Shown here piece after piece: positions 334-27,746 of a DNA stretch of 64,000 bases. The stretch is from the NCBI GenBank assembly GCA_965228895.1, contig OZ245842.1:4224001-4288000 (forward strand). The letters run 5' to 3'. Both the position numbers and the translations under genes were made by a program. Every line of letters starts with the position of its first letter. Position 1 is the stretch's first letter. The notes beneath the pieces were generated by a model. It had not been told where the DNA came from. It made no database searches and saw nothing but the letters and a program-made list of their open reading frames with translations. The stretch is from Alphaproteobacteria bacterium. Lineage in GTDB: Bacteria; Pseudomonadota; Alphaproteobacteria; SP197.

Positions 334-361
334 AAATCCCATAATCTGCATTATGGGAAAT
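334..361 (+). other. dif-like XerC/XerD recombination site, copy 1
   Basis: AAATCCCATAA-TCTGCA-TTATGGGAAAT: 11-6-11 layout with a CATAA/TTATG core. It is followed by TGGTGGTGCGGGCAGT, as in copy 2. Confidence 0.65.
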
Positions 362-748
362 GGTGGTGCGGGCAGTTCCCCAAATTCCGAGTCACTTGTT
401 CTAGCTCTCAAGGTCTCTTCAGTTAATCAACAGCAGAGCCCCTACGCGACGGGGAAGGGAACTTTTTCTACGGAACGGGAAATCACCATGAACATCATGG
501 CAATGCAACTTGGCGATAGCCAGATAGATTTGATCTATTCTCCGTCGCGATTGTGAACGATACGGGGATTGGTTGACGGACCCAGACGGTCTGCGAACTC
601 GATAGTATGAGGCGCCCTGGCAAACTCATCATGAGTATCGGATGCGAGGTGATGTGAATAAGGCGGAGTGTTGTGAGGCCCAGGCGTCTTCGCTAAAAGC
701 GCGCGTAAAGTTTCGCGCCACGCACTCGAGTCTGCGTCAAAGCCCGTT

Positions 749-2083
749 CTAATCCCGAAATGATCGGCTCAGTCCTGCGACAAGGGGATCAAGCATATAG
801 GCGAGCGCCGTCTGCTCGCCGGTAAGGATCATGACTTCCGCTGGCATGCCCGGCATCAGGTCGACGTCGCCCAGTTTTTCGAGTTCGTTTTGAGCAATCC
901 TGACGCGCGCCTCGTAATAAGGTTCCCCCGTTTGCTGATCCGTCAGCCGGTCGGCGGACAGGCCGATGACCTCGCCGTGAAGAACAGGCGTCTCGCGTTG
1001 GTTTAGGCCGGAAAATCTGACCTCGGCGTTTAGGCCGATTGACGTGTTCTCGATATCATCGGGCCGCACGCGTGCCTTCACGATCAATGCGTCGCCGGCA
1101 GGCACAATGTTCATGATCGGCTCGCTTGGCTTGATGACGCCACCAACGGTATGGGCGTTCATGCCAAGCACCGTTCCGTCTTCCGGCGCGACGATGTCAA
1201 CGCGCTCGAACTGATCCGCCGCCGCCACCCGACGCTGCTCCAGATCGAAGATCTCCGCTTGAACGTCGCGCAACTCGGCGACAACCTGCTCTTGAAAACC
1301 CTTCTCAAGCTGAATGATCTGCAGTTCGGACTCCCCGATCGCGGTTCTGGCGCGCGCGATGGCCGCCAGATCCTCACCGCGTTCACCGCGCAGGCGTTCG
1401 GACTCGCGTTCCAGCGACAGGATACGCGACCGGGTCACATACCCTTCTTCATAAAGCGCGCGCAGACCCTCCAGTTCATCTTCGATCAGCACGATCTGTT
1501 CATTGCTGGCGGATTGCTGAACCTCCAGGCCGCCGATCTCGTCGTGAAGCTGTTCGATGCGTTGACGCAGAATCGCGGCCTCGCCGCTCAGGTTGGCGCG
1601 CCGGGCCTGGAAAAGAAGCTCCTGGCCGTCAAGGATCGTACCGACATCGGGGTCGCTGTCACGAACGTCCAGCAGGTCTTTGGGGAAGGTGATGGTCTCA
1701 AGGCCATCGCGTTCAGCGAGCAGGCGCGCCTCCGTCGCCTGCGCCAGATTGAGCTGGCTGTCGATAATCTGCAGCGAAGCTTCGGACCGCGTAGCGTCGA
1801 GTCTGAGGACGACGTCGCCCTGTTCGACGTGATCGCCGTCGCTCACCAGGATCTCATCGACGATGCCGCCTTCCAGGTGTTGGATGGTTCGCCAGTTGCT
1901 GTTGACCGCGATGACGCCAGGTGCGATCGCGGCGCTGCTCAGCTCGGCCGTTGCCGCCCATGTACCTAAACCGCCGAACATCGCCAGAACGATGACGATG
2001 CCGGTGACAGCGATCGGTTTTATGTGGACCTTCGGCTCGGACGGTGTCGCGCCACCGTGGGCGAAGGCAAGTGCCTTGTTCAT
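749..2083 (-). CDS. prtE: Type I secretion membrane fusion protein (HlyD/PrtE/AprE family)
   Basis: N-terminal TM, IQHLEGGIV, coiled coil, IVAPEDGTV, LMPGMPAEV. Overlaps the ABC gene by 4 bp. Confidence 0.93.
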   Translation of the reverse strand: MNKALAFAHGGATPSEPKVHIKPIAVTGIVIVLAMFGGLGTWAATAELSSAAIAPGVIAVNSNWRTIQHLEGGIVDEILVSDGDHVEQGDVVLRLDATRSEASLQIIDSQLNLAQATEARLLAERDGLETITFPKDLLDVRDSDPDVGTILDGQELLFQARRANLSGEAAILRQRIEQLHDEIGGLEVQQSASNEQIVLIEDELEGLRALYEEGYVTRSRILSLERESERLRGERGEDLAAIARARTAIGESELQIIQLEKGFQEQVVAELRDVQAEIFDLEQRRVAAADQFERVDIVAPEDGTVLGMNAHTVGGVIKPSEPIMNIVPAGDALIVKARVRPDDIENTSIGLNAEVRFSGLNQRETPVLHGEVIGLSADRLTDQQTGEPYYEARVRIAQNELEKLGDVDLMPGMPAEVMILTGEQTALAYMLDPLVAGLSRSFRD

Positions 2084-3789
2084 GATGCCGTCCTCAAACG
2101 TGGATTGTCGGTTGGCCGTGCAAGCACCTGCTCCAGGATTGCTTCTTTGTTGCCGAAGGCCTCGATCTGGCCGTTCCGCAAGACGATCAGCTTGTCGACG
2201 GACGCGATCGCGCTGCGCCGGTGGGTCATGACGACAACCGTCTTGCCGAGCTCTTTCATGGCGCGTGTCGCGAGGCCCAGCGCCCGATCGCCTTCCGCAT
2301 CAAGACTGGCATTCGGCTCGTCGAGCACGATCAGCGGCGGCTCCTTATAGAGGGCGCGCGCCAATGCTATGCGTTGGCGTTGACCGCCCGAAAGGCTGCG
2401 TCCGCCTTCGCCGACGACCGTATCGTACCCGTCGGGCAAGCGCAGGATCATGTCGTGAACGCTCGCCAGGCGTGCGGCCGTTACGATGGCTTCCGGCGAC
2501 GCATCGTCGACGAACCGCGATATGTTCTCGCCGACCGTGCCGTCGAACAGATCAACGTCCTGCGGCAGGTAGCCTATATGGCGCCCCAGATCTTCGGGAT
2601 CGTAGTTCTCCAGTTCTGCGCCATCGAGCCTGACGCTGCCGTCATAGGGCCGCCACACGCCAACCAACAAACGCGCCAGGCTGGACTTGCCAGCGCCCGT
2701 CGGACCGATGACACCGACCACATCACCGGGGTCGAGGACAAAGCTGATGCGCTTCAGCGACGGTTCCGTTCCACCGGGCGGCACCACAATGGCCTGCTCA
2801 ACGGAGATCAGGCCACGCGGTGCTGGCAGGCTCATCCGTTCCATGCCGGCCCGCCTGCCGTCCATCAGATTTTGCAGCCGGCGATAGGCATGGCGCGCCG
2901 ACACGACCGTGCGCCAATTGCCGATGGCCTGTTCGACGGGCTGTAACGCGCGCGCCAGGATGATGGATGCCGCGATCATGACACCGGGCGTGATGATCTG
3001 ATCGATAGCAAGAAACGCGCCGACGCCCAGCATGGCTATCTGGATAACCAGACGAACCGCTTTCGAGATCGCACTGATGGTGCCGCCGCGGTCGCTGGCT
3101 TCGCCTTGCAAGATCAGCGATGCCCTGTGTTTCCTACGCCAGCGCCGCTCCAGTGCCGGCAGCATGCCCATCGCTTGAATGGCGTCGGCGTTGCGCAGGC
3201 TGGACTGGGCGAAGACCGCGGCTTCGGCGGCATGACGATTGGCTTCGTCCAGCGGCGATCGGGTCCTTTGCTCGTTGGCCAGCGCCAGCGCAGCCAGGAC
3301 CACCGCGCCCGCCACGGCAACGAAACCGAGCAACGGATGAAACAGGAAGATCACCGCGATAAAGACAGGCGTCCATGGCGCATCGAACAGAGCAAACGGT
3401 GCGGTGCCGGTCAGGAAATGGCGCAGGGTTTCGAGGTCGCGCAGCGCCTGGCCGCGGTCGATCCGCGCCGCACCGAGGCTGCGTTCGAATGTCGCCTGAA
3501 AGACATGGCTGCTGAGCTGTTCGTCAAGGCGCGTTCCGACCCGCACCAGGATGCGGCTGCGGATAACCTCCAGGCCGGCCATGACGGCGATCATGCCGAT
3601 CGCCAGGATCGTCAGGGCGACCAGCGTCGACTGGCTGCCGCTTGCCAAGACCCGGTCATAGATCTGCAGCATGTAGAGCGGTGCGGTCAGCATCAGCAGG
3701 TTGATGAAGAAACTGAAGAAACCGATGAGGCCAAATGACCGGCGCATACGGCGCACGGTCTCTTCCAACAAGTTTGGATCTTTTTCCAT
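2080..3789 (-). CDS. prtD: Type I secretion ABC permease/ATPase (PrtD/AprD family)
   Basis: NLLMLTAPLYMLQIYDRVL, FDAPW, Walker A GPTGAGKS, LSGGQRQR, LDEPNASLD. Confidence 0.95.
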   Translation of the reverse strand: MEKDPNLLEETVRRMRRSFGLIGFFSFFINLLMLTAPLYMLQIYDRVLASGSQSTLVALTILAIGMIAVMAGLEVIRSRILVRVGTRLDEQLSSHVFQATFERSLGAARIDRGQALRDLETLRHFLTGTAPFALFDAPWTPVFIAVIFLFHPLLGFVAVAGAVVLAALALANEQRTRSPLDEANRHAAEAAVFAQSSLRNADAIQAMGMLPALERRWRRKHRASLILQGEASDRGGTISAISKAVRLVIQIAMLGVGAFLAIDQIITPGVMIAASIILARALQPVEQAIGNWRTVVSARHAYRRLQNLMDGRRAGMERMSLPAPRGLISVEQAIVVPPGGTEPSLKRISFVLDPGDVVGVIGPTGAGKSSLARLLVGVWRPYDGSVRLDGAELENYDPEDLGRHIGYLPQDVDLFDGTVGENISRFVDDASPEAIVTAARLASVHDMILRLPDGYDTVVGEGGRSLSGGQRQRIALARALYKEPPLIVLDEPNASLDAEGDRALGLATRAMKELGKTVVVMTHRRSAIASVDKLIVLRNGQIEAFGNKEAILEQVLARPTDNPRLRTAS

Positions 3790-3931
3790 ACGATCTCTCT
3801 TTCGTCTTCATCGTGTCGACGACGGATCCCCACGCGCCATCGACTGTTTGAGTTTTCTGGATAAGGCCTTGGTCACACCAACGGACGCGCGGGCATCACA
3901 TCGTGACACCCGCGCAGCCGTCGAAACCAAA

Positions 3932-6130
3932 CTACGAGAGCCAGCCGTCGAAACCGAGTTCGGTAAGCTGGTCAACAACACCGCCTGAACCGTCCAGGAC
4001 ATTGTTGTAGGCAGCCGCGGTAAGGTTATCGGCGGTCAAGTCTTCGGCCTGAACATCCTCCAGGACGTAGCGGCGACCGCCGTTGTTGAGGACCTCGATA
4101 ACCAGGTCATCGCCATTCTCGGTAATGCCGATCTGGGATGGCGCAAGATGACCGAAATCGATGACATCGGCGGCAGGGTCGAAGTCGTCGATGACCTCCT
4201 CGACACCCCACTTCCAGGTAATCGCGACGGTTTCTGCGTCGCCGGTGCCTGGATCGCCTGAACCAGGATCACCGGCGCCCGGATCACCTGTACCAGGGTC
4301 ACCGGTACCGGGGTCACCCGTACCGGGATCGCCGGTTCCCGGATCCTGCCCGCCGGTGTCACCGTCGTCGCCGATCAACGCAAAAACCTCAGTCTGGGCG
4401 GTGCTGTCGAGAATGGTGAAGTTCGACGGCGACAGATCCGCAAGGGCAACGTCCTCAAGCGTCGTGGTCTGGTTGTTTGACGGCACGGCGAAGATGGTGC
4501 TGCCGTTGACCTCGCTCACTGCAAGCTGGTCGGCACCGATCCAGTCGATGAAGACGGTATCGTTGGCCGGATCGAAGTCGCTGACCACGGCGTTCTGTCC
4601 CCAGCTCCACGTAACGACCACGGTCTGGGGATCGGCTGTTCCGGGGTCACCTGTGCCGGGGTCACCTGTGCCGGGGTCGCCGGTGCCCGGATCGCCGGCG
4701 CCGTCACCAATCAATGCGTAGACTTCAGCTTGGGCGGTGCTGTCGAGGATGTCGAAGTTGGCGGGCGACAGGTCCGCGAGCGTCACCCCTTCAAGCGTTG
4801 TCGTCTGGTTGTTCGACACCACCGAGAACACGACGTTGCCATTGATCTCACTGACGTCGAGCTGCTCGGCGCTGATCCAGTCGATGAATACGGTATCGTT
4901 CGCCGGATCGAAGTCGCTGACCACGGCCTGCTGACCCCACGCCCAGGTGATGACAACCGTCTGACCGTTGCCTGTGCCAGGGTCGCCGGTGCCAGGGTCG
5001 CCCGTGCCGGGATCGCCGGTGCCGGGATCGCCGGTGCCAGGGTCGCCCGTGCCCGGATCACCTGTACCGGGATCGCCTGTGCCGGGATCGCCGCTGCCGA
5101 TCAGTGCGAACACCTCTGCTGCAGCGCTCAGGTCAAGCACCGTGAAGTTCGCGGTCGTCAGGTCCGCCAGCGCGACACCTTGCAGTGTCGTCGTCTGGTT
5201 GTTGGACGGCACCGCGAAGACAATGTTACCGTCGACTTCTCGCACCTCAAGCTGATCGGCGGTGATCCAATCGATGAAGATGGTGTCGCTCGCCGGGTCA
5301 AAGCCGGTGATGACGTTGTCCTGGCCCCAAGTCCAGGTGACGACGACATCGGCGGTTTCGGCCGTCACGTCGGCCAGTCCGGTACCGTCACCTGTGCCGG
5401 GCGCACCCAGGCCTTCGTCGCCGGTCAACCGGGCTTCGAAGTAAGCGATCATCTCGTCGACGGTGGGCGTGTCGAAGTCGCCGAACTGGGCGACATACTG
5501 CAGGATCGATGTGCCGTATTCGTCAGCGCCGACAGTCCCATCCAGCAGCAGGTTGGCGACGCCATCGAAGCCACGCAGATGGGCAGCGGCCAGAATGCCG
5601 CTCAAGGTCAGCGTGACCTCGACCACCTGGCCGTTGTCGATGTAACTGCGTGTCGTGCCGACATAGTCATCGAGGCTGGCGCCGCCGGCGGCGAGCAGCT
5701 CTTCGATCAGGCCAAGGTTGAAGCCGAACGCCTCCTGAATGGCGACGTCCTGGGCGCCCTTGGTCATGAAGTCTTCAAGTGAGTTAACGCCGTTCTTCCC
5801 GGTCCAGGTGCCGTCCCAGGTAATCTCCGTGGCGCCGTTACCGTAGTAGAAGTCGTCGTCGTAGTAGCCGAGGTCGATCAGCAGAGCTTCGCCGAACTGA
5901 TAACCGACAAAACCCAGACTGTTCATCGAGCGGTAGGACATCGCATCCCATTCCGCATCGCTCAGGTCTCCCCAGCTTGAATACTGCGGAAAGAAGTCCT
6001 GGACCGTTCCGCCGGCCCATTGATCGAGCTGCCAGTCTTGGATTTCACCCGTTTCGTATCGTGGGCGATCCCATCCGGATTCAAACGCCCGTAACGCATT
6101 GAGAAAGTCGTCAAATGTGCCTGCACTCAT
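3932..6130 (-). CDS. Acidic, probably T1SS-secreted protein: lysozyme-like N-terminal domain, four ~75-aa TWxWG repeat domains, (GDPGT)n linkers
   Basis: FLNALRAFESG...GFVGYQFGEALLIDLGY...LAAAHLRG resembles the lysozyme/SLT fold. Repeats VTWxWGQ..V..FDP..D.IFIDW. No signal peptide. Directly upstream of the T1SS genes. Confidence 0.75.
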   Translation of the reverse strand: MSAGTFDDFLNALRAFESGWDRPRYETGEIQDWQLDQWAGGTVQDFFPQYSSWGDLSDAEWDAMSYRSMNSLGFVGYQFGEALLIDLGYYDDDFYYGNGATEITWDGTWTGKNGVNSLEDFMTKGAQDVAIQEAFGFNLGLIEELLAAGGASLDDYVGTTRSYIDNGQVVEVTLTLSGILAAAHLRGFDGVANLLLDGTVGADEYGTSILQYVAQFGDFDTPTVDEMIAYFEARLTGDEGLGAPGTGDGTGLADVTAETADVVVTWTWGQDNVITGFDPASDTIFIDWITADQLEVREVDGNIVFAVPSNNQTTTLQGVALADLTTANFTVLDLSAAAEVFALIGSGDPGTGDPGTGDPGTGDPGTGDPGTGDPGTGDPGTGDPGTGNGQTVVITWAWGQQAVVSDFDPANDTVFIDWISAEQLDVSEINGNVVFSVVSNNQTTTLEGVTLADLSPANFDILDSTAQAEVYALIGDGAGDPGTGDPGTGDPGTGDPGTADPQTVVVTWSWGQNAVVSDFDPANDTVFIDWIGADQLAVSEVNGSTIFAVPSNNQTTTLEDVALADLSPSNFTILDSTAQTEVFALIGDDGDTGGQDPGTGDPGTGDPGTGDPGTGDPGAGDPGSGDPGTGDAETVAITWKWGVEEVIDDFDPAADVIDFGHLAPSQIGITENGDDLVIEVLNNGGRRYVLEDVQAEDLTADNLTAAAYNNVLDGSGGVVDQLTELGFDGWLS
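4237..4346 (-). repeat. 15-bp coding tandem repeat, about 7 GDPG(T/A/S) units
   Basis: Protein QDPGTGDPGTGDPGTGDPGTGDPGAGDPGSGDPGTGD. Confidence 0.85.
4628..4700 (-). repeat. 15-bp coding tandem repeat, about 4 GDPGT units
   Basis: Protein GAGDPGTGDPGTGDPGTGDPGTADP. Confidence 0.85.
4970..5095 (-). repeat. 15-bp coding tandem repeat, 8 GDPGT units
   Basis: gccggtgccgggatc-type units with synonymous variation. Confidence 0.9.
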
Positions 6131-7009
6131 GGCGGGCCTCCTGTCGGTATTTGTGTTTTTATGTAGGTCGGCCGTTCAGCCGAGATCCCCCGTGGTACCC
6201 GGAGGTGTGTCCAAAAAATCTAGTCGATGGTCTCTCCTGCGTTGTAGGACTGGGAATGGTTAACCTTTTGCCCGGCGCGCAACGCGTCGGATGTCGTGGC
6301 AGTTGAAGCGCTGTTGTGGATTCGGAATCGCTTGATGCGATGAACGACCGGACGACCTAAACCGGATGGGACGGCGCCCGGAACATCAGTCGTCCTTATG
6401 ACCCGAGGACTGGCATTTCTTGCGCCAATGATGCTGGGCTTGATAAGCACGTCAGACGGCGACTGCGCCGGCATTGTGGGCTTTACTGACGTCAAACTTG
6501 CGCGAACGTCATCGTCAGGGATCTTCGACATTACGGCAACGGTTCCAAAGCAGCGTGTCCTTATTGTGACGCCGCATGCAATTCGTTAACCGCTCTCCCT
6601 CCGATACGGCGCTTCGAACTCACACGTAGACAACGCTCGTACGTAGGTTCTCTTGGGAACCCTACGCGGCAAAAGTGTTAACGCAAGGTGATCGCTGGCG
6701 TTGCGGTCAGCCGTTAGGAGCATGAGACCGACATGCCGTTCGCGTACGGCGACGCAGACGGGCGCGACGAGAGGTGTCACTTTGGGCGGAACCGCCCGTA
6801 GATTTTCGTGATGGGAGGTGCACGGACGTACACCTCCGCGCGTCCATGCGTCAGTTCTCGTCATGTGGCTCTTGCATGCCGCAACAGCGTCGGTGCGTCC
6901 GTGAAGGTGCACGCCGACGAGGCAGCACCGGCTGATAGCTTTGCGGTCTAAGAGGCGGTCGCGACGCGCCGGTTACACGGACCCCATACGTCGACGACCG
7001 CCCCTATCG

Positions 7010-8539
7010 TTAATCGCCTTCCACTTCCAGCGGGGCGCCGCCGGCACCAGGTGCGCCGAACGTCAGGGTGTTGTCGACATAGGCGCGCATTGCTTCCGCC
7101 CACTTGGTCAGCGTGTCGCAGATTTCTGGCTTGTCGGCGACATCGACTGTACACCGCAACGAACTGAAGTTGGTCAGGCTCATGGCCATCTGCAGCGAAT
7201 AGTCGGCCGAATAGAGCTGACTGTCGCTAAACACCGTTCCCGCCTGGACGTTGCGGTAAAAGGACATCTGGAAGTCCTGATGCGTTGCCACTGAATCGGC
7301 CGTCGTTATGCCCAACACCGGCGCGAGCGTAGATGCCGCAGGCTCAATTGCCGTCGCCGGGAAGCCGGCTGTCTGATGACACCCCATACAGGCAGCCTGC
7401 GGATTGTCGACCGGGCCAGCAAGACGACCTCCATAGCCCAGATGGTCGAGGCTCAACTCGTTTGCCGTCAGCTCCTTCAAGGCATCCATGTTGATCCACT
7501 GCTGCGTGAGTTTCGACTCATCGCAGTTACCGTCCGCATCACACGAATCGGCATAGGTGACACTCGGATCGCTGCCCCACTGGAGGCCGAGGGTAACCAT
7601 ACGATCCCACGGCGTCTCTCCGTCTCTTGTGCCGTCATAGGCGAAGGTCCCGAACAGCCAGCCGGTCAGACTGCGGTCGTCACGAACGGCCACGTCGATC
7701 TGCAGCATGCGCACCGGCTGAACCTCGCGGTCGTACTTCGACAGCGGTCCTTCGTTTCTGACTTCCGGGTTTTGCTCGACGTATCTGTCGGCTTGCCACA
7801 CGAGCGAGTTGACCATGGTCGGTAACTGTTCATCTTGGACCGTCGAGAATAGCAGTTTGATGATGTAGGACCCGTCGGGGAAGTTGTTCAGCCCGGTGGG
7901 ATCTGGATTGAGTGCCGAGGGATCGGGCGAATCCGGATCGCAATAGACCTGTCCGATAGCGAAGCCGCCTCGGTCGTTATAGTACGCGCCCGACCACGTA
8001 TCGACGAACTTGCCCTGGATTGTTGAGAACGTCTTGGGGAATGAGTCGAATTCGTGGGTCAGGCCGTGCACAAACTCTCGCCCGTCGGTGCCCGGCCAAT
8101 CGCCGGCCACCTCCGTATTCCAGTCCATCCACGGCATCGAGTACCAGTCCCGTACCGTGTTGTCCTCGACATAGAAGTCGACCTCGATGTTGCCTTCGAC
8201 GCCATACGCCAACAACGCCTCAAGATAGGCCTTCGGGTCCGTCGGACCGCCATTTTCGAACTCGATCGCGAGCCAGGGATAATCCTCCATCGGAGGAAGC
8301 TGATCGGGATAGTCCTGGCTAAGCTTGAAAACCCGCCCGGTGTAGTCGTCCGGCGGGTCGCCGCCTTCGCCCTGCAGATAGTAGTCCTTGAACATGCCGC
8401 GCACGCAGTCCTGCTTGGCATGGGCGTTGCGGACATCGTCCGACGAAGCCGCAGCAAGATCGGCACCAGCGAGAGCAAACGCGCCAGCGACAAAAACGGA
8501 TAACCCCAAGGCAAGCTTGGTCGCGTCTTTCTTGCTCAC
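7010..8539 (-). CDS. Exported 509-aa protein with one C-terminal heme-c motif (possibly cytochrome P460-like)
   Basis: Signal peptide, FPDGSYIIK, ACMGCHQ (CxxCH). Co-directional with the MCO gene, 33 bp away. Confidence 0.6.
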   Translation of the reverse strand: MSKKDATKLALGLSVFVAGAFALAGADLAAASSDDVRNAHAKQDCVRGMFKDYYLQGEGGDPPDDYTGRVFKLSQDYPDQLPPMEDYPWLAIEFENGGPTDPKAYLEALLAYGVEGNIEVDFYVEDNTVRDWYSMPWMDWNTEVAGDWPGTDGREFVHGLTHEFDSFPKTFSTIQGKFVDTWSGAYYNDRGGFAIGQVYCDPDSPDPSALNPDPTGLNNFPDGSYIIKLLFSTVQDEQLPTMVNSLVWQADRYVEQNPEVRNEGPLSKYDREVQPVRMLQIDVAVRDDRSLTGWLFGTFAYDGTRDGETPWDRMVTLGLQWGSDPSVTYADSCDADGNCDESKLTQQWINMDALKELTANELSLDHLGYGGRLAGPVDNPQAACMGCHQTAGFPATAIEPAASTLAPVLGITTADSVATHQDFQMSFYRNVQAGTVFSDSQLYSADYSLQMAMSLTNFSSLRCTVDVADKPEICDTLTKWAEAMRAYVDNTLTFGAPGAGGAPLEVEGD

Positions 8540-8572
8540 TTCTCACATCTCCTCTTCGTTCGTCTGGTACGG

Positions 8573-10264: not shown

Positions 10265-10920
10265 GATACGCTAGCCGCTGAGAAAACGGCTCTGGCTGCC
10301 GCGGTCACCGCGTCACCGGTCACGTCGTTCTCGCCCTTTGGTGTGGCAAACAAACTCGATACCGAACATCCAATAACGTGTGGGGCACCAATAGATACGG
10401 CTTCAACGCAAACATCCGAAGAACTTCAAAGTAAATACACGCCACATCCAATTAGAATCGAATGTATCAAGAACTGTCAAGAACTAATGGTTGTGAAAGT
10501 CGGGACGACACAGACAAGCGACGCTCATCTCAACTCTGTCACCTAAGTCGTTCCGCATTCGATGCTGAACCTGCGACAAGCGCAACGTCCTCAACCAACG
10601 ATTGAGCGCCCGGACATGCCGAGGTGCATCGTCTCGCTTCTCCATAGTCGGGAATCCTGGCATGACGGATAACATTCTTCATGAGCAGGCACGGCAAACC
10701 AGAAAGACGTTGCAACACGACAGTTGGTTCGATTTCGCGAAGTAAGGCCGATTGTTTGGTGCAAAAAAGTGTGACGATCTGCACAATTCCGGCGTCATAA
10801 CTTGCCTCAGTGGGACCAACCTTTGAGGGTGGAATGGTTAACTTTGGAGCCGTTCCGAAGTCTTGGGGTCTTCGGATGAAACGGCGACACGCAGCCACCA
10901 CCAAAGCAAAGGTCTCAACG

Positions 10921-17644: not shown

Positions 17645-17653
17645 ATACCGCTC

Positions 17654-20166: not shown

Positions 20167-20185
20167 GTCGAACCGCGCACGGCGG

Positions 20186-21037
20186 TCATGGCGATGGCCG
20201 GGGATCGCGGACGACCGCGCGGTGCATGCGGCGCAGGAAACCCTTGCCGTGCAGCTTGGCTTCAAGGTCGTCATCAAGCGCCTCGTGCACCGTTGCGCGA
20301 TTGTCCCACATGACAATCGTGTCGGGCTGCCAGCGAATACGGCAAGTCAGTTCGTTGCGCGTGGCGTGGCCGTTCAGGAAGTTCAGCAACGCCGCACTTT
20401 CCTCGCGCGTCATGCCTTCAATCTCGCGCGCATAGTAGGGGCTGATCGACAGCAACCGCGCGCCGCTCTCCGGATGAACACCGGCGAGCGGATGGCGTGC
20501 GACCTCGCGTGGCTTGTCGAGATCCTTGAACCCCATACCGCCGAACGGCGTCGGATCGGGCGGCCACGACTCGTGCACGGCGACTAATCCCTTGAGCAGA
20601 TCGCGCATGCTTTCGGAAAGCGTCAGCCAAGCATTGGTCAGACTGGCAAAGCAGGTATCGCCGCCGACAGCCGGGACATCCTTGCCGTGCAGAAAGGTTC
20701 CCATGGGCGGGCGTGCGCGGAACGACATGTCCATATGCCAGCCGCTGCCAAAGGCCTGCACGTCATCGGGCAGCTTCAGGATCTCGGTGAGTTCCGGCAC
20801 GCCCTCGACGCTGGTTGCGTAAGGATAGTCCTCGATCTCACCGAACCGGCGCACGAAGGCCAGAAACTGCTGCGGGCTGATCGGCTGGTCACGGATAGCG
20901 AGCACGCCAAAGCGGACCCAGGCTGCCCTTAGCGCATCAAAGCTGGCCTCACTAAGCGGCTCGGAAAGATCGAGACCAAACACCTCCGCCCCCAATGCGG
21001 TCGCCAGCGGCCGCAACTCAAAGGAGTTCTGCGTCAT
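20186..21037 (-). CDS. TauD/TfdA-family dioxygenase
   Basis: WHMD, GGDT, HPESG, WDNRATVH. Confidence 0.9.
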   Translation of the reverse strand: MTQNSFELRPLATALGAEVFGLDLSEPLSEASFDALRAAWVRFGVLAIRDQPISPQQFLAFVRRFGEIEDYPYATSVEGVPELTEILKLPDDVQAFGSGWHMDMSFRARPPMGTFLHGKDVPAVGGDTCFASLTNAWLTLSESMRDLLKGLVAVHESWPPDPTPFGGMGFKDLDKPREVARHPLAGVHPESGARLLSISPYYAREIEGMTREESAALLNFLNGHATRNELTCRIRWQPDTIVMWDNRATVHEALDDDLEAKLHGKGFLRRMHRAVVRDPRPSP

Positions 21038-21071
21038 GTCGTCTGCCCCCCTCTCCGTGGCCAACAAGAAG

Positions 21072-22322
21072 TCATGCCGCCGTCTCCATACGCAGCCTGA
21101 TGTGCCCGGCAAGATGGGCGGGGTCGTCGCCGATCCCGTAGAAACCGCCAGATGCGAAGGTGTGGAGCCAGTGTTGACCGCAAAAGTAGAGACCCGGCAG
21201 ATCACTCACACCGCGCTGCTGGCGCGGAAACCCGCGTCTGTCGAGGACGGGTTCGTGAATCCAGTCGAAATCGCAGTTGAATCCCGTCGCCCAGATGATC
21301 GAGGTGATGCCGGCGGCCGCCAGATCGATCCGCTCGGTTTCCGCGTAGCCTGAGCCTTCGCAAGGCTGGCCCTCATCAGTATTGTCCGCATTGACCTCGG
21401 GTACATCAAGACCATGTTCGCGGACGAAACCGTCGACTTTCTGCTTAAAGTCGACGGCAAAGGCATCGGACTCGGCAATCCGCTGATTGAGGTCCGAACC
21501 GAATAGTGCCACGCCGTCTTCAACACCATTAAGCCGCCCGGTGAGCGCCACGCCACGTGCGGCAAGAGAATGCAGGTTGACACCATGCCGGTCGCGCGCA
21601 CCGGTCAGCATCATGCTGGCGGCGTATCGTTCCTCATGGGTGACCGGATTGACCGGCGTCGTCAGCCAACCCATGTCGACCATCCAGGCAAAGGCATCTC
21701 GTCCGCGATAGACCCGAGGAATTCGGTTACCGGCGCCGACCGCCAAAAAAACCTCACGACCTGCCTCGATAAAGTCCTCGCAAATCTGCACACCCGTCAT
21801 GGACGAACCGACGATCAGTGCCGCACCGCCGGGCAGCCCCGACGGGTTCTTGTATGTGTAGGGATCCAACTGCATGACATCGCCGGAAGCCGCCGTTGCA
21901 AAGCCGGGCACGTTGGGCCGGTGAAAGAAGCCGGTGGCCACGATGACATTGCGGGCCTGCAACGTGCCGCTGCTGGTTTCCACGCGCCAGCCATCGCCAC
22001 TGCGCCGCAGATCGGTCACCTCAACGCCATGCCGGATCGGCGGGCGGACCATCGCGCAGAAATCGTTGAGGTAGCCGACAACTTCATCACCCGTCAGAAA
22101 GGCGTCGGGCTCATCGCCGTCATAGGCAAAGTCGGGAAGGCGCAGAAACCAATTCGGCGTGACAAGCGTGAAGCTGTCCCAGCGTTCATGGCTCCATGCG
22201 TGACCGACCTGGTCTTCTCGTTCCAGGACGACATGTTCCATGCCGTACTGGGCGAGCCGATAGCTGACCGAGAGTCCGGCCTGGCTGCCGCCGATGACAA
22301 CGATGTCGTGCCGTTCACTCAC
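21072..22322 (-). CDS. Flavin-containing monooxygenase (CzcO-like)
   Basis: GGSQAG, RWDSFTLVTP, ATG, WATGF, GLYFCG. Confidence 0.85.
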   Translation of the reverse strand: MSERHDIVVIGGSQAGLSVSYRLAQYGMEHVVLEREDQVGHAWSHERWDSFTLVTPNWFLRLPDFAYDGDEPDAFLTGDEVVGYLNDFCAMVRPPIRHGVEVTDLRRSGDGWRVETSSGTLQARNVIVATGFFHRPNVPGFATAASGDVMQLDPYTYKNPSGLPGGAALIVGSSMTGVQICEDFIEAGREVFLAVGAGNRIPRVYRGRDAFAWMVDMGWLTTPVNPVTHEERYAASMMLTGARDRHGVNLHSLAARGVALTGRLNGVEDGVALFGSDLNQRIAESDAFAVDFKQKVDGFVREHGLDVPEVNADNTDEGQPCEGSGYAETERIDLAAAGITSIIWATGFNCDFDWIHEPVLDRRGFPRQQRGVSDLPGLYFCGQHWLHTFASGGFYGIGDDPAHLAGHIRLRMETAA

Positions 22323-22466
22323 GTTTCATTACCGCCCCGGCGCCCGGTCGTGTAGCGCAACCGCAAAGTAGTCGCTCACGATTCGGCGCCGCTCCATACC
22401 GACATGACTGGAGGTCATCTTTGCCCAAGCACAAACCCAGTAAAAATTCCAAATACTGGGCCGGAT

Positions 22467-23432
22467 CTATGCGATCAGATCATCGTTGGCTGCGGTTGGG
22501 GACAGCGCCAGGGTAGTCGCGACCTCGGATTTCAGCCAATCGCAGAACGCGACGATGTCGGACCTGCCGGCGCGGTCTGCTGGCACCACCATGAAGTGGC
22601 CGCGGTCCCAACGGCAAATCTCGGGAATTGGCCGCACCAGGCTACCTTCGCGCAAGAGGTCACCGGCGCAATGATGCCAGCCTATGGCGACACCCAGGCC
22701 GCGTTGCGCCGCTTGAATAACCATCTGGTAGCTGGTGAAGGTCATGCCGTGGGGCGGCAGTGGCAGTTCGACGTCGAAGTGGCCGAGCCAGACCTTCCAG
22801 TTGATCGGTGTCGGCCACGGATAGCCAATCCACGTCGCATCGTCGAGGTGGAGCAAGGTTGCGTTCAGCAGATCCTTCGGACCGGTCATCGGAGCGTGCT
22901 GGGCAACGTACTCGGAGCTGCACACCGGATAGGCTTCCTCCATGAACAGCAGCTCGGCGTGAAACTGGGGATCGTCTTGATGGCCAACCACGATCGATAC
23001 ATCAAAGTCGTCGACGGTGGGACTGGGATTGCGTTCCAGCGAGACGATATGGACATCGAGCTCGGGGTACTTCTGGCGGAAGGCCGCCATGCGCGGTACG
23101 ACATAGAGGCTCGCCTGGGACGTCAGCATGCCGACTGTCAGCTTGCCGGATTCACGTTGCTGGCGGATTTCCTGCGCTACCAGGCTCATATGGGACAACG
23201 CCATGGAAACCGCTTCCATCAACTTGCGTCCATCGGCGGTCAGGCGAACGGTCCGGTTCTTGCGCTCGAAGAGTCGGACGCCAAGGTCGTCCTCCAGGTT
23301 ACGTACGTGGCGGCTCACGGCCGACTGTGTCAGCAGAAGCTCATCGGCGGCGCGCGTGAAGTTCTGATGCCGCGCGGCAGCTTCAAATGCCCGCAGAGCA
23401 CTCAGCGGCGGCAGTTTGCGGTGGGAAACCAT
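22467..23432 (-). CDS. LysR-type regulator, GcvA-like
   Basis: LPPLSALRAFEAAARHQNFTRAADEL..TQSAVS. Confidence 0.93.
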   Translation of the reverse strand: MVSHRKLPPLSALRAFEAAARHQNFTRAADELLLTQSAVSRHVRNLEDDLGVRLFERKNRTVRLTADGRKLMEAVSMALSHMSLVAQEIRQQRESGKLTVGMLTSQASLYVVPRMAAFRQKYPELDVHIVSLERNPSPTVDDFDVSIVVGHQDDPQFHAELLFMEEAYPVCSSEYVAQHAPMTGPKDLLNATLLHLDDATWIGYPWPTPINWKVWLGHFDVELPLPPHGMTFTSYQMVIQAAQRGLGVAIGWHHCAGDLLREGSLVRPIPEICRWDRGHFMVVPADRAGRSDIVAFCDWLKSEVATTLALSPTAANDDLIA

Positions 23433-23455
23433 GCCAGCTTGGCTCTTCAATCCCT

Positions 23456-23830
23456 TCAAGTGTCGTCGGCGTCGATCGCACGGTTCGGTCCATGCAGATA
23501 AACCAGAATGGTACAGCCTCGCGGCGACTGCGAGGCATGCCGGCTTCCCGCACCGTAACTTACGATACTGCCGGGACCGAACACCCGGCCATCCCCATCG
23601 ACGAGTTCGCCGGCAACAATATAGGAGTCTTCACCGCCCGTATGAATGTGCGGCAACGACTTGGTGCCGGGGTCGAGCCGAACAAGAAACGAGCCCCGCA
23701 CCGCCTGACTATCAAAGTTGATCGGTTTCCAGAAGATGCCTGGAACCGGATCGCCGTAGAGGTCGTAGGGGCGAAAGTCCGCAGTCTCTACAGTAAGGAT
23801 CGTGCGTCCCGGAACGTCGTTGTGGGTCAT
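23456..23830 (-). CDS. ChrR-like cupin protein
   Basis: PGTKSLPHIHTGGE...GSRH. Confidence 0.75.
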   Translation of the reverse strand: MTHNDVPGRTILTVETADFRPYDLYGDPVPGIFWKPINFDSQAVRGSFLVRLDPGTKSLPHIHTGGEDSYIVAGELVDGDGRVFGPGSIVSYGAGSRHASQSPRGCTILVYLHGPNRAIDADDT

Positions 23831-23855
23831 GGTGTTCTCCGTTGCGTCAGGTCTT

Positions 23856-26039
23856 TCACTCCGCGTCGATGCCGTACTCTCTCTTCTTGCGTGCACTCCA
23901 GCTTTGAATAATGCGGTCGGTGGTCATGGCGATGAAGGCCATGCACAACGCCGCGGTAATGCCGACACCAAAACCGCCATCGGCAAGGCTTTGATAGATG
24001 ATTTGGCCAAGACCCTTGGTGCCGACGAGCGCCGTGATCACCAGCATCGCCAATGCGAACAAGACGGTTTGGTTGATACCCAGCATGATTTCCGGCAGCG
24101 CCAGGGGAAGCTGGACACGGAACAGGAGTTGCCTGTCTGTACAACCCATCACGCGGGCCGCTTCCACCGCGTCCGCGTCGACCCGGCGGACACCCAATTC
24201 CGTGTACCGGATACAGGGCACGATCGCGTACATCACAATTGCCAGCAGACCCGCGAAGTCGCCGACCTTGAACAGTACGACCACTGGGATCAGGAAAACG
24301 AAAAGCGGGATCGATTGCAGCGTGTCGTTCAGCGGCCGCACGATGGCGGAAACGCGGTTGCTCAGTGCCGCCCAGACGCCGATCGAAACGCCGAGCAGAA
24401 TACAGACCAACACCGCCGAGCCGCATAAATAGACCGAGATCATCGATCGCATCCAAAAACCGCTCGTCAGCATGAAGGTGAGACAGAAGATCGCAAAAAG
24501 ACCGATCTTCCAGCCGCCCACTTGCCAGGCGAGCGCGACGACAGGCACAAGAACCGCGGGCCAAGGCATCTCGGTCAGACCGACGTAGTAGATCAGCGCG
24601 ACGTAGAGTACCGCTAGCGCGGCCCGCCACGACCACGACCGCGCGGCCCAAGCAGCCGCGGCGGCGGCCAGGGTCGCGTACACAACGATGACCGGTGTTG
24701 TCAGGGCAAAGCCCCATGAGAAGGGACTGACGGCCTTGTTAAAGCCTATCTTGATAGGCAGCATGAAGTAGAAAAGCGTCCAGTTTCGAATGCTGTCGGT
24801 GATCGCGTGATAGTTCGTGTTGATCCACGTGATCGCCGCATCGAGTGGTTGATGGGGCAGCACCGTCCAGGCGGCCGGATAGGTCTGAAGAACCGGGACA
24901 AACATGCTGGCGGCAAGAAGCGGGACGGCGACAGCGATGGTTCCGACCATCACCGGATGACGCCGCCAGAAATCGCCGGACGCGCCGGCGGCAAGTGTGG
25001 TGTCGCCCCTGCGCGAAAAGCCGAGCGTGATACGGTCCATCATCATGGCAACCAGCACGATGGCGAGGCCTGTGAGCAGGCTTTTGCCGAACTCGGCCTG
25101 GCGCATGGTGTAGAGCACCTCCCAGCCAAGATCCTCGCCACTGCCAAGCACAGCGGCGATGACCACCATCGACAGGGTCGCAAGGATCGTCTGGTTGATG
25201 CCCAACATGATGGTCGGCATGGCGGCAGGCAGTTTGACGAGCCAGAGTATCTGCCGGGTTGTCGCACCGGACATGACCGCCGAGTCAACGACATCGTCGG
25301 GCACGCGGCCCAGCCCCAGCATCACGGTGCGCGCCATCGGCGGCATGGCGAACGTCGCCGATGCGATCAGACCCACGGTCGGGCCAAACCCGAACAGCAC
25401 CAGGCAAGGCACCAGGTAGGCAAAGGTCGGTATGGTTTGCATGAAATCGAGCATCGGCTCGATGGCACGGCGTAAGTTCGGACTTCTGTGACCGATGATC
25501 CCGACGACGAGGCCGACAGTGATGGCGAGCGGCAACGCGACACTGACAAGCGCTATGGTTAGCGCCGTCTTCTCCCAAAACCCGGCCACAAGAATGTAGG
25601 TCAGCGCAACCAGGCAGAACACGGCAAGACGCCAGCCGCCCGCAACGTGCGCGGCGGCAACGACGGCGACCATGACCAAGGGCCAGGGCAGCCACAGATA
25701 AAAGTTGCGTAGACCGTAGACCGGCCATTCGAGAGTCCACGAGATCGCCCGGAAGATCGATTTGAAGATGCCGACAAACCAGTCCATGCCAGCATCGAAG
25801 AGGTCGGGGATTGGCAGCCCCTGGCCTTCTTCGAGACGCAGGAGCCACGCGTTGTCGGACGCGAACAGAAAACTTGCGGCAACGATGACGCAGACAGCCA
25901 ACCAAACCAAGCCGCTGCGGCCGACGCCCGCATCTACGCCACCGATCAGGCGGTTATAGAGGCCGCGCGACGTCGCGGCGGCATTCGTGCCCTCGACCAT
26001 CACGGCACGTTGTCCGACGATAGCGGCATAGATCCTCAT
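23856..26039 (-). CDS. Glycine betaine/choline-type ABC permease, fused double ProW domain
   Basis: Two ProW repeats: LDFMQTIPTFAYL/GINQT and DTLQSIPLFVFL/EAA/GINQT. The start could be 26000. Confidence 0.9.
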   Translation of the reverse strand: MRIYAAIVGQRAVMVEGTNAAATSRGLYNRLIGGVDAGVGRSGLVWLAVCVIVAASFLFASDNAWLLRLEEGQGLPIPDLFDAGMDWFVGIFKSIFRAISWTLEWPVYGLRNFYLWLPWPLVMVAVVAAAHVAGGWRLAVFCLVALTYILVAGFWEKTALTIALVSVALPLAITVGLVVGIIGHRSPNLRRAIEPMLDFMQTIPTFAYLVPCLVLFGFGPTVGLIASATFAMPPMARTVMLGLGRVPDDVVDSAVMSGATTRQILWLVKLPAAMPTIMLGINQTILATLSMVVIAAVLGSGEDLGWEVLYTMRQAEFGKSLLTGLAIVLVAMMMDRITLGFSRRGDTTLAAGASGDFWRRHPVMVGTIAVAVPLLAASMFVPVLQTYPAAWTVLPHQPLDAAITWINTNYHAITDSIRNWTLFYFMLPIKIGFNKAVSPFSWGFALTTPVIVVYATLAAAAAAWAARSWSWRAALAVLYVALIYYVGLTEMPWPAVLVPVVALAWQVGGWKIGLFAIFCLTFMLTSGFWMRSMISVYLCGSAVLVCILLGVSIGVWAALSNRVSAIVRPLNDTLQSIPLFVFLIPVVVLFKVGDFAGLLAIVMYAIVPCIRYTELGVRRVDADAVEAARVMGCTDRQLLFRVQLPLALPEIMLGINQTVLFALAMLVITALVGTKGLGQIIYQSLADGGFGVGITAALCMAFIAMTTDRIIQSWSARKKREYGIDAE

Positions 26040-26127
26040 TGGGGGTTTCCGGGCGCGGGAGCCCGGCGGGGAGAAGCGGTCCGGAGCAGCGAAGGCAACC
26101 GGACCGCATCATCACCTGTGCCGACGG

Positions 26128-27111
26128 TTAGGGGTTCTTGGCCACCTCGATCCACGCCTGCCAGCGATCGCTGTTGTCGGCCATCCATTGATCGAGGAAA
26201 ACGTCGATGTCCGTGCCGTCAGAGACCGCCTTTTCCATTTGGATTTGGTCATCCGCATTCATGTCGATGTTCTGGAGAATGCGGTATGCCGTGGGCCACT
26301 GGTCGGGCGTTCCCGGCCAGGCGGTGTTCCATATTCTGGCAGCCGACCAGTCGCAGTCATAGGTCGCATCCGGATTGACGCCGCCCGAGGGGTCCTCGTT
26401 GCAGCCATCCCAGTATTCGGGAAGGCCAACCTCGGCCAGCGGGTAGTCGGCCAGGATGCCGTGCGGCGACCAGAACTGGATGAGCAATGGTTCGCCGCGT
26501 TCGTGAGCCGACTTGATCTCGGCAACCAACGCGCCCTCGCTTCCCGCCGGTTGGGATACTAAGGGAAGACCAAGCGCCTCGATGCGCCACTCGTTGGTCA
26601 CGCCCCACTCGATCGGATAGTCGAGCAAGCGTCCGTTCGGAAAGGTCTCGGCGGTCGCGAGCGATTGAGCGCATTCGTGCAGGACCGTGTAGTCCGTGTC
26701 GAGATCCGGACAGGCTTCCAACGCCTTGTCGTTGGCGTACCAAGTCTCGATACCCGAATAGCCGATCTCGCCGGCATCCAGCACCTGACCGCTCTCAAAG
26801 AGCTCCATCCAGCCTTCGCCGATATTGGACGACCACAGACCCAAGGCCATGTGAATGTCACCGTCGGCCACACCCTGGACTTGCGGATAGTAGCCTGCCG
26901 AAATGTACTCGACTTTGTATCCCGCCGCCTCGAGCACCCGGCCAAGTACATGGGCATTGAAGTACTGTCCGGCCGCACCTTGAACCGCAATCTTGATGGG
27001 ATCCTCGCTTTCGGGAACCTCGGCCACCACAGCGGTCCCTGTTCCACCAGCGTACAGTCCGGCTGCAACGGCCGCCGACATAGCCCACTGCTTAATCTCC
27101 AGCGCCTTCAT
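26128..27111 (-). CDS. Betaine/TMAO-type ABC substrate-binding protein (ProX/TmoX-like)
   Basis: Signal peptide, ESEDPIKI, AGSEGAL, FWSPH, TYDCDW, GGGAGG RBS. Confidence 0.88.
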   Translation of the reverse strand: MKALEIKQWAMSAAVAAGLYAGGTGTAVVAEVPESEDPIKIAVQGAAGQYFNAHVLGRVLEAAGYKVEYISAGYYPQVQGVADGDIHMALGLWSSNIGEGWMELFESGQVLDAGEIGYSGIETWYANDKALEACPDLDTDYTVLHECAQSLATAETFPNGRLLDYPIEWGVTNEWRIEALGLPLVSQPAGSEGALVAEIKSAHERGEPLLIQFWSPHGILADYPLAEVGLPEYWDGCNEDPSGGVNPDATYDCDWSAARIWNTAWPGTPDQWPTAYRILQNIDMNADDQIQMEKAVSDGTDIDVFLDQWMADNSDRWQAWIEVAKNP

Positions 27112-27534
27112 TCGGTCACCCTCCCATTGTTGTGGCGTCATCAGAAGTGTGACTCATCCTAGTGATCGTGATTTGTCGCTCAAAATGAGAAACAGACATG
27201 CTCATTCATGCGCCTGCCTCATGGTTGATATGCTGAGTGGGTTGCGGTTGGGTCTGACCGTCAGGCCTCAAGTGAACCAACGAAGGCATCGTCGCGCCGG
27301 CAGTGACCTCGCCCATCAAACCGCGCCAGGCCCGACGCCGCAGATCCAGGCTGAGCATTATGGTTAGCGCGACAGAGGACCGCTTTGCCCCACGAAGCAA
27401 TGGCAATACGAGAGTGTGTGGCTAGTGCCAAACCCTTCCTTTGCCCAGCCGTTTCGCCGTCGGTGTCGAGAGAGACGGACACAGCCATCTCTTCTTTTCT
27501 CAGCGCCTACCTTTGGTCCTGAACCTCAAAGCGC

Positions 27535-27562
27535 GAGGGTCATAATCTGCATTATGGAAAGT
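27535..27562 (+). other. dif-like XerC/XerD recombination site, copy 3
   Basis: GAGGGTCATAA-TCTGCA-TTATGGAAAGT, with the same spacer and orientation as copies 1 and 2. Confidence 0.65.
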
Positions 27563-27578
27563 GGGCGGATAAGGAGAA

Positions 27579-27746
27579 TGGCGGTGCGGGCAGTCTGCTG
27601 CGAACCCGTCTCTGCCGAAATTTCCCTGTTAACAGGGAAATTACAGGGAAATTTTGCAGATACTGGCGGAATCTGAGTTTTTCACCGCAGTTCCTGCCAT
27701 ATTTTCAGTAACTTAGATGAAAATTCGCTACGCATCCGAACAGGGA
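27579..27746. repeat. Conserved dif-adjacent element, copy 3 (interrupted by IS110; resumes at 29165-29227)
   Basis: Palindrome at 27621-27640. CAGGGAA boxes at 27633, 27644 and 27741, then 29179 and 29221 after the IS. Confidence 0.85.

Follow-up and report, generated by a model that had tools for sequence, protein, structure and literature searches.

This analysis concerns a stretch of 64,000 nucleotides of an alphaproteobacterial chromosome (the window; positions 4,224,001-4,288,000 of a single 5,528,408-bp contig), in which one short core sequence is repeated three times in the same direction. On balance, the three repeats are considered to be Xer recombination sites of the dif-like 11-6-11 type, belonging to two chromosomal direct-repeat arrays whose modules turn over at the sites. 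This explanation is favoured with a confidence that lies a little above even. We infer that XerC and XerD (XerCD) bind the sites and catalyse the exchange, that circular intermediates arise, and that an element of ~240 nt found beside many of the sites has a role in the reaction.

Dif-like sites in two tRNA-anchored arrays

The window contains the 17-mer CATAATCTGCATTATGG exactly 3 times, always on the + strand (340, 13514 and 27541), against an expectation of 0.01 matches; none of 100 shuffles reached 3. In a preliminary description of this DNA the repeats had been placed at 334, 13508 and 27535. These positions, 6 nt before each 17-mer, mark where the 11-6-11 sites begin and are correct, as are the common orientation, the identical 6-bp spacer TCTGCA and the spacings of 13,174 and 14,027 bp, which repeat analysis confirmed. 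Site A (334..361, +) consists of the XerC-side arm AAATCCCATAA, the spacer TCTGCA and the XerD-side arm TTATGGGAAAT, and scores 44.8 bits with the position weight matrix (PWM) described below. Site B (13508..13535, +) reads CGGCCGCATAA-TCTGCA-TTATGGAAAAT (46.3 bits), and site C (27535..27562, +) reads GAGGGTCATAA-TCTGCA-TTATGGAAAGT (42.9 bits). The shared sequence TGG(T/C)GGTGCGGGCAGT, also reported earlier, is present after every copy; it follows sites A and B directly, and site C only after 22 further nt.

The PWM was trained on 17 sites and applied to the whole genome, with hits of at least 18 bits counted. The 20 hits comprise the 17 training sites, an additional island site at 4,295,113 and two dif-type sites. 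Beyond these no position of the genome reaches 18 bits, and the weakest member of the family scores 29.8 bits. The 18 dif-like island sites of the 5.53-Mb genome are all found within two low-GC islands (module GC 0.555-0.624, against 0.624 for the genome). Array 1 includes 14 sites at 345,430-561,843, all on the - strand, with a span of 216 kb, and starts downstream of tRNA-Met (321,892-321,968, +). Array 2 includes 4 sites at 4,224,340-4,295,113, all on the + strand, with a span of 71 kb, and, being downstream of tRNA-Ser(GGA) (4,310,749-4,310,838, complement), ends upstream of it in contig coordinates; 3 of them are the sites of the window. It can be seen that the three-site array first noticed is real, but that it forms part of a far larger system of 18 sites at two loci. 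The sites are directly repeated, with a single strand used throughout each array (14/14 and 4/4), and mostly intergenic, as had been claimed: 12 of the 14 array-1 sites lie outside crude open reading frame (ORF) calls, and the remaining two fall within short ORFs (93 and 110 aa) which overlap the repeat and have no Pfam hit.

The XerD arm of every site faces the tRNA 3' end in both arrays, so that site polarity flips between the replichores. An origin-symmetric inversion that split one array into two was considered and rejected, because G002, a genome of the same genus, possesses a separate small array at this tRNA-Ser locus and polarity goes with the tRNA gene. In form the core is an imperfect palindrome, situated in intergenic DNA, as would be expected of an ordinary dispersed repeat (resembling repetitive extragenic palindromes or miniature inverted-repeat transposable elements) or of a chance palindrome, either of which would have no role in the modules. 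Such an origin is considered extremely improbable. Copies of a dispersed repeat would be scattered irrespective of locus, whereas outside the two arrays, which contain the 18 island copies without exception, the PWM hits only the two dif-type sites near the terminus; moreover, the chance expectation in the window is far below the observed number, and no match was found in 31 other genomes of the order or in 16 further genomes of the class. Within the order (33 genomes, one family) the sites are confined to this genus. The same distribution of PWM hits disposes of the possibility, foreseen in the preliminary description, that the motif is simply a scattered transposon end.

The cumulative GC skew of the genome has its maximum at 2,356,452 and its minimum at 5,050,734. 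At 2,268,582, 88 kb from the maximum, lies the dif candidate AAGTCGCATAA-TATATA-TTATGGAAAAT, which is likely to be the chromosomal dif. A second dif-type site at 2,598,520 has the same two arms and the spacer GCTACA. These two sites have the same orientation, lie 330 kb apart, bracket the skew maximum, and have nothing in common in their flanks outside the 29-bp core. The array consensus, nnnnnnCATAA-TCTGCA-TTATGGAAAAT, aligns with all 18 island sites and contains the inner inverted repeat ..ATAA N6 TTAT... A comparison with the host dif, which had been proposed as a check, reveals that the XerD arm of the array consensus is identical to that of the candidate near the skew maximum; the spacer TCTGCA is conserved in the arrays. 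In the XerC arm the inner CATAA alone is conserved, and the outer 6 nt differ from site to site and from the host dif arm AAGTCGCATAA. Divergent XerC arms are reported for other Xer recombination sites (xrs) in the accessible part of the literature on the IS1202 family of insertion sequences (IS; Fig. 6 legend). The same legend names IS of Methylobacterium and Rhizobium beside 6-7 different xrs, so that comparable arrays may already have been tabulated. When one genome per species was scanned for the dif-type core elsewhere, a site with the TCTGCA spacer and a full XerC arm (e.g. AAGTCGCATAA-TCTGCA-TTATGGGAAAT) was found once per genome in 4/4 other alphaproteobacteria, two labelled Hyphomonadaceae, one Hyphomicrobiaceae and one Azospirillum. 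To judge from their sequences, these single-copy sites have the form that would be expected of the dif of those species.

Only 4 proteins of the genome match PF00589, namely one XerC-like protein, one XerD-like protein and two P4-type integrases, and none is encoded in the arrays. The XerC-like protein (296 aa) scores 318 bits with TIGR02224, whose cut-off is 335; the XerD-like protein (301 aa) scores 366 bits with NF001399, above the cut-off, and passes the PRK00283 cut-off. Each scores best on its own NCBIfam model, and both lie slightly below the equivalog cut-offs. No tyrosine recombinase is present on array DNA in any of the three genomes with arrays (the window's genome, G002 and the metagenome-assembled genome G049), nor on the array contigs of G002 (3 PF00589 hits) or G049 (8 hits) as a whole. 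The PF00589 search also found no tyrosine integrase at tRNA-Met or tRNA-Ser and no candidate for intI in or beside the arrays, and the two Xer proteins score far under the cut-offs of integron-integrase models. A Pfam search of 218, 27 and 62 ORFs found, between the outermost dif-like sites of each array, no site-specific recombinase except a large serine recombinase, accompanied by ParB/RepB-like genes, ~0.9 kb from site 4,295,113. The earlier statement that the modules of the window contain no recombinase holds for the 27 ORFs scanned with Pfam, to which a transposase fragment at 13118-13453 (-) and an IS110 transposase at 28041-29114 (-) have to be added.

The gap between the tRNA gene and the first site is occupied at each locus of the window's genome by an element of 16-23 kb (322,274-345,400 and 4,295,130-4,310,510). 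The two elements are related to each other; both encode a large serine recombinase, a terminase, DUF5681 and an N6/N4 methylase, and their recombinase genes are 75% identical. One of them additionally carries RES, AAA_15+UvrD (Gabija-like) and PIN genes.

Conserved flanks of the core

On the XerD side, 11 of the 18 sites are followed, 0-6 nt past the XerD arm, by a conserved element referred to here as Rp, and 3 of these have an extra 22-29 nt at the junction. The full form is ~240 nt long and consists of a 40-nt head (GGTGGTGCGGGCAGTCTGCTGCGAACCCGTCTC...), an inverted pair (TTCCCTGTTAACAGGGAA) and further copies of the motif ACAGGGAA. Rp-B (13536..13781, +) is a ~240-nt element of this kind, with the 40-nt head GGTGGTGCGGGCAGTCCGCTGCGAACCCGTCTC... 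and about seven ACAGGGAA/TTCCCTG motifs, the last three spaced 22-23 nt apart. Rp-C (27563..27751, +) begins with ~22 additional nt that duplicate part of the head, and it breaks off after ACAGGGAATATA at 27751, whereas site A is followed by a truncated head (362..376, +), GGTGGTGCGGGCAGT, after which likeness to the other copies ends. The 79-bp element described previously is a real repeat (13526-13613 and 27570-27657 are 90% identical), but it represents only the head of the ~240-nt element, of which copy A keeps the first ~15 nt. Six of the 18 sites are bare 22-28-bp cores without the element, yet they are well conserved.

An RNA structure for Rp was considered and dropped for want of covariation support: in an RNAalifold alignment of 10 copies the covariation term was +0.2, and 1 of 25 pairs was compensated. 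Rfam gave 0 matches in the whole window at gathering thresholds, and at E-values up to 10 the stretch 13450-13750 yielded a chance long non-coding RNA hit alone and no tRNA. The head of Rp is faintly similar to a tRNA 3' end (TGGTGG...CGAACC). A tRNA origin of the head was also rejected, the best score against 50 tRNAs being 15 and the shuffled null having a maximum of 11.9 +/- 1.6 and a range up to 20. Clusters of at least three ACAGGGAA motifs occur genome-wide in Rp copies only, with none at the far end of any module and none upstream of a candidate gene. Because the motif copies are spaced and covariation is lacking, Rp is read as a putative array of repeated protein-binding sites, such as those in transposon ends or attP arms; the ACAGGGAA motif appears to fit no binding site that we can name. 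A lone 40-nt Rp head is found at genome 934,748-934,783, followed by other short repeats (GCAAATCA, AACACG), in a low-GC region near tRNA-Ser(CGA).

These properties would also suit a system in which a protein that binds the Rp motif (be it a transposase, an integrase that works in trans, or one of the large serine recombinases on the tRNA side) is the engine, and the core serves merely as a target or safe-haven signal or for resolution of the product. Apart from the spaced motif copies, such an engine would agree with the occurrence of Rp without a core elsewhere, and with the serine-recombinase elements that lie between each tRNA gene and the first site and ~0.9 kb from 4,295,113. It is nonetheless regarded as rather unlikely. 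The confinement of motif clusters to Rp, with none at module far ends, speaks against it, and no transposase or integrase is common to the arrays of the three genomes. Moreover, the last site of the G002 tRNA-Met array lies 5 bp from the tRNA 3' end with no serine-recombinase element between them, and six sites have no Rp at all.

The usual kinds of tandem accretion also have to be weighed at this point, either of phage-like integrative mobile elements that exploit Xer (IMEXs) at dif or of integrase-borne islands with repeats of the tRNA 3' end. IMEXs are characterised by direct dif-like repeats in the absence of an integrase, the arrays adjoin tRNA genes in the manner of classical islands, and the Rp head is loosely tRNA-like. 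Nevertheless, accretion of either kind is judged improbable: the arrays are situated 1.8-2.0 Mb from the skew maximum and not at dif, their cargo is metabolic rather than phage, neither tRNA gene has an adjacent tyrosine integrase, and the likeness of Rp to tRNAs lies within the shuffled range.

On the XerC side there is either an IS remnant or nothing conserved. A conserved flank of ~60 nt was found at 8 sites, namely 345430, 366733, 427150, site B and four in G049. Read outward from the site it starts TGTAGGCGC, with TGT or a decayed form of it first, and in 8/8 cases its end is precisely 5 bp away from the 11-nt XerC arm, with C at position 9 in 7/8. According to the accessible part of the IS1202-family literature, members of the ISAba32/ISAjo2 subgroup always have their left inverted repeat (IRL) toward the XerC arm of Xer sites, 5-6 bp away; their ends start with TGT and have an invariant C at position 9, and partial copies keep the IRL. 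The ~60-nt flanks are identified by this resemblance as IRL remnants of xrs-targeting IS of the IS1202/ISAba32 type, an independent marker of Xer sites. They are called remnants because no intact IS1202-family copy was found. In the window, one such remnant (13115..13502, -) has its IRL-like outer end at 13502, so that 5 bp separate it from the XerC arm of site B; within the remnant, a 112-aa ORF (13118-13453, -) matches no more than the N-terminal 54 residues of the ISNCY transposase model NF033594 (E 5.8e-5, far below cut-off). The possibility that left-flank ORFs such as 27261-27488 represent a conserved small gene, possibly XafT-like, was rejected; the similarity covers only ~60-110 nt and the frames are not conserved.

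Module turnover in relatives

Gain or loss of blocks in relatives had been proposed as a check in the preliminary description, and in G002 there is indeed gain, loss or replacement of whole modules, the breakpoints being located at the sites. Both tRNA loci of G002 carry arrays colinear with those of the window's genome, again with sites on a single strand (9/9 and 2/2). On its contig C4, 9 sites, all +, form an array that ends at tRNA-Met and is colinear with array 1, with whole modules missing or replaced. Positions 46,702-58,711 of C4 correspond to 526,763-514,677 of the window's genome (81-82% identity), 110,393-122,385 to 463,291-451,292 (84%), 122,302-138,975 to 399,798-383,520 (79-84%), and the chromosomal flank 139,395-169,258 to 320,030-291,210 (81-90%); the sequence between these blocks is each genome's own. 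At G002 site 122,299 the left flank matches that of site 451,361, and the right side with the distal part of Rp matches site 399,785; in the window's genome 51.6 kb and three modules separate these sites. The tRNA-Ser locus of G002 has two + sites 6-7 kb from tRNA-Ser, in an island corresponding to array 2, and the gene beside one of them is a 75% homologue of the gene equally placed at array-1 site 537,491. A third genome of the genus, G001, has no site within 1 mismatch, and is uninformative because its flank contig in a 500-contig assembly ends before tRNA-Met. For a sequence of ~120 nt at genome 310,666-310,793, matches of 75-95% number in the dozens and are spread over many contigs of both congeners; this is a dispersed repeat family unrelated to the dif-like sites.

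Outside the order, the 12 sites of G049 (labelled Hyphomicrobiales) are distributed over five contigs and accompanied by Rp and IRL remnants; each contig uses a single strand (5/5, 3/3 and 2/2 on three of them). Almost none of the DNA of its cargo is found in the other two genomes; the segments that it shares with the window's genome are few and mostly 72-73% identical, apart from single ones of 80% and 88%. The core plus 75-78 nt, by comparison, has a median identity of 88% between the window's genome and G049, and of 85% among copies within one genome. By these identities, conservation of the sites exceeds the relatedness of the two genomes.

Module 2 of the window, between sites B and C, is absent from G001, G002 and G049, where only paralogue-level hits of 64-76% were found, and it has no relative in the plasmid collection except one 167-bp hit. 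Four public runs were compared, all as contigs. In run X2, which is source-like, module 2 forms a separate contig of 14,034 nt ending in Rp, and in run X3, which has another organism label, it forms a contig of 14,070 nt with 133 differences, also ending in Rp. As both contigs end in Rp, module 2 lies between repeats in both organisms, an arrangement that is silent on excision. In X3 most of 7701-13036, in module 1, is uncovered and module 2 is complete, the uncovered stretch being no evidence of absence; the low share in run X4 reflects low depth. A joint of 13595 to 27573 across module 2 was rejected as an excision product, since it joins non-equivalent Rp positions at elevated depth, and is read as a repeat-collapsed unitig.

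Several results weigh against the Xer explanation. The contigs of the four public runs contain no excision product. The degeneracy of the XerC arm outside CATAA makes XerC binding uncertain. Activation of Xer recombination by FtsK is not expected at arrays (0.35-0.56 Mb and 4.22-4.30 Mb) that lie ~1.8-2.0 Mb from the terminus. The serine-recombinase elements beside both tRNA genes indicate that another recombination system shares the loci. Rp is separable from the core, because core-less or head-only fragments of it occur at genome 934,783 and 4,213,618 and on two metagenome contigs; a metagenome scan for the core plus the Rp head gave 0 hits, and a scan for the head alone gave these 2 contigs, both core-less and beside ordinary genes. 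An array-1 module, that between genome sites 466545 and 463541, has a copy in the window (43987..46916, +; 95.5% over 2,931 nt) without a flanking dif-like site. This 2.9-kb module encodes MerR, cation efflux, cytochrome c, SHOCT and signal peptidase II proteins, and its homology ends 41 nt and 7 nt from the flanking array-1 sites; as a duplication from site to site into array 2, the copy otherwise counts in favour of the Xer explanation. Shared modules are in the same order in both congeners, so that inheritance of the array is largely vertical and module turnover may be slow. Finally, the crossover at the G002 122,299 junction can be located no more closely than from the core's left edge to about +85 of Rp, and RecA-dependent recombination between repeats of ~270 bp would yield the same junction.

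The last points lead to the alternative that homologous recombination by RecA between the ~270-bp core-plus-Rp repeats drives the turnover, the Xer-like core being a passenger or relic. Together with the Rp-binding engine considered above, this is the main competitor of the Xer explanation. The repeats are 74-93% identical within the genome over ~95 nt and extend to ~240 nt, and the colinearity of the shared modules, together with the coarse placing of the one junction examined, agrees with such a process. RecA as the driver is nevertheless considered unlikely. Repeat homology alone would not preserve the bare cores that are kept at six sites, and conservation falls precisely on the inner XerC half, the spacer and the XerD arm. 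The strict single polarity is likewise unexplained by homology, though inverted copies would be selected against. The likeness of sites between genomes with unrelated cargo, too, requires spread or constraint beyond homology.

The requirement for a reaction away from the terminus recalls the plasmid sites cer and psi, in which accessory DNA of ~180 bp on the XerC side binds PepA with ArgR or ArcA. There, as possibly here, an Xer core is combined with roughly 200 bp of flank that could bind architectural proteins and thereby free recombination from FtsK and restrict it to direct repeats. In cer and psi this DNA is found on the XerC side, whereas the conserved element lies on the XerD side in the arrays, and this difference belongs with the points against the Xer explanation.

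Module cargo, known systems and significance

The coherent gene blocks first described between the window sites are reproduced by Pfam on 27 ORFs. Module 1 (749..13079; GC 0.603) encodes HlyD and an ABC exporter, a 732-aa repeat protein, a multicopper oxidase, an isochorismatase, a urea transporter and a cupin. Module 2 (14101..27141) encodes a 2-oxoglutarate oxygenase, an MttB-family methyltransferase, an aminotransferase, an SDR protein, a GMC oxidoreductase, TauD, a flavin monooxygenase and a fused OpuA-type permease-OpuAC binding protein, and metal genes follow site C. The 732-aa ORF (3932-6130, -) beside the HlyD/ABC exporter contains 15-nt tandem repeats (5-residue units rich in Gly, Asp, Pro and Thr) and three super-repeats of ~340 nt; its product, which has no informative Pfam hit, is likely a type I secretion substrate. 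The cargo scan was extended with 218 array-1 ORFs (10 border-crossing ORFs left out) and 62 array-2 ORFs beyond site C (one skipped). Modules between sites measure 1.2-44 kb and are self-contained, consisting of catabolic operons with transporters and regulators or of metal-resistance clusters for copper and mercury. Catabolic and transport functions include Rieske oxygenases, OYE-type flavin dehydrogenases, TauD, MttB, creatinase, dimethylformamidase, GFA and many ABC systems, among them OpuAC; the regulators are of the IclR, TetR and LysR types.

Mobile and recombinase genes between the outermost sites are limited to an IS4/5 fragment, an IS110 element, two inverted IS3 copies and the one large serine recombinase. 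The IS110-family element (27752..29400, -, the far end near 29400 being approximate; transposase 28041-29114, NF033542 337 bits) sits in the ACAGGGAAwATA motif of Rp-C, and the same ~45 nt follow this motif in the Rp copy at genome 451,361. This agreement suggests that the motif may be the target of the IS110-family ('RNA-guided') element, of which the genome has no second long copy. The IS3-family copy at 42770..43987 (+) has an identical, inverted counterpart of 1,218 bp at window-equivalent 64300-65517. The pair brackets ~20 kb with a mer operon, a multicopper oxidase and thiol-disulfide/copper-chaperone genes, in a layout like that of a composite transposon.

Compared with known systems, the arrays work most like an IMEX array or a dif-module island, yet they fail the defining features of Acinetobacter modules, IMEXs and integrons. 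IMEXs such as CTX-phi, TLC-phi, VGJ-phi and the gonococcal genetic island integrate at the terminus dif and are mostly phages or satellites. Like them, the present arrays have no integrase of their own, are bounded by direct dif-like repeats, form tandem arrays that in IMEXs result from successive integration, and require independence from FtsK. Unlike them, they lie ~1.8-2.0 Mb from the terminus rather than at the chromosomal dif and consist of metabolic operons. Sedentary chromosomal integrons also form long arrays in one orientation, in which promoter-poor cargo units are separated by repeats and content varies at a conserved platform locus. In the arrays, however, there is no intI or attI, a dif-like duplex site with a motif array takes the place of the folded attC, and the units are whole operons with regulators instead of single ORFs.

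The closest described precedent comes from Acinetobacter, in which clusters of Xer-site modules on the chromosome are known (PMC12907356), so that the idea of chromosomal Xer modules is not without precedent. In the accessible parts of the reports, the chromosomal dif-module island has 10 sites and 9 modules in 36 kb (PMC12907356, PMC10132070, bioRxiv 10.1101/2022.12.17.520857). As far as the same texts go, clustered Xer-type sites delimit modules there too, with no dedicated recombinase and with IS1202-family IS 5 bp from the XerC arm. According to them, Acinetobacter sites alternate between C/D and D/C, and the mostly small modules, on plasmids or in the chromosomal island, carry mainly resistance and toxin-antitoxin genes. 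The present arrays differ in having direct repeats only, every array being single-stranded in its sites with no inversely oriented flanking pair, and also in the modules of 1.2-44 kb, the spans of 216 and 71 kb, the adjacency to tRNA genes, the ~240-nt element on the XerD side and the alphaproteobacterial host. A hybrid dif-like site linked to Tn6022 shares a perfect host XerD half-site combined with a divergent other half, and excision between direct repeats has been demonstrated experimentally for it, according to the available portion of the report (PMC11014353). A dedicated XerC-like recombinase is encoded adjacent to that site, whereas the present genome has no extra Xer-like gene among its 4 PF00589 hits. 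No description of direct-repeat Xer-site arrays, either by tRNA genes or in Alphaproteobacteria, was found in a literature search that covered few subscription journals. The preliminary remark that the arrangement was not known from Alphaproteobacteria stands to this extent, tempered by the Acinetobacter clusters.

According to the mechanism proposed under the Xer explanation, host XerC and XerD would bind the array sites, and recombination between two direct repeats would excise a module as a circle with one site. By recombining with any array site, such a circle would insert its module. Arrays would in this way gain, lose and replace modules over time, in a manner similar to integrons but without an integrase of their own. 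The reaction would have to be independent of FtsK because the arrays are ~1.8-2.0 Mb from the terminus. Rp, with its phased ACAGGGAA motifs beside the XerD arm, would be the best candidate for the accessory-protein binding region that permits such a reaction. A more specific proposal is advanced only tentatively, as a possibility less probable than its alternatives taken together: that the arrays constitute an integron-like capture platform without a recombinase, in which XerCD and an Rp-bound factor excise and insert operons of 1-44 kb as circles at tRNA-anchored direct dif-like sites, and in which the site-plus-accessory unit is exchanged between distant Alphaproteobacteria independently of the cargo.

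The movement of Acinetobacter Xer-site modules is called unclear in the accessible literature, and simple excision is impossible for those modules because their sites are inverted. A direct-repeat array, by contrast, predicts circles with one site and precise empty junctions. If the Xer explanation is true, enzymes of housekeeping dimer resolution would assemble large metabolic islands far from the terminus in environmental Alphaproteobacteria, and an extra route would exist for gene exchange on the scale of operons without an element-encoded recombinase. The host XerD arm repeated in one direction would additionally provide a simple annotation marker by which such islands may be delimited.

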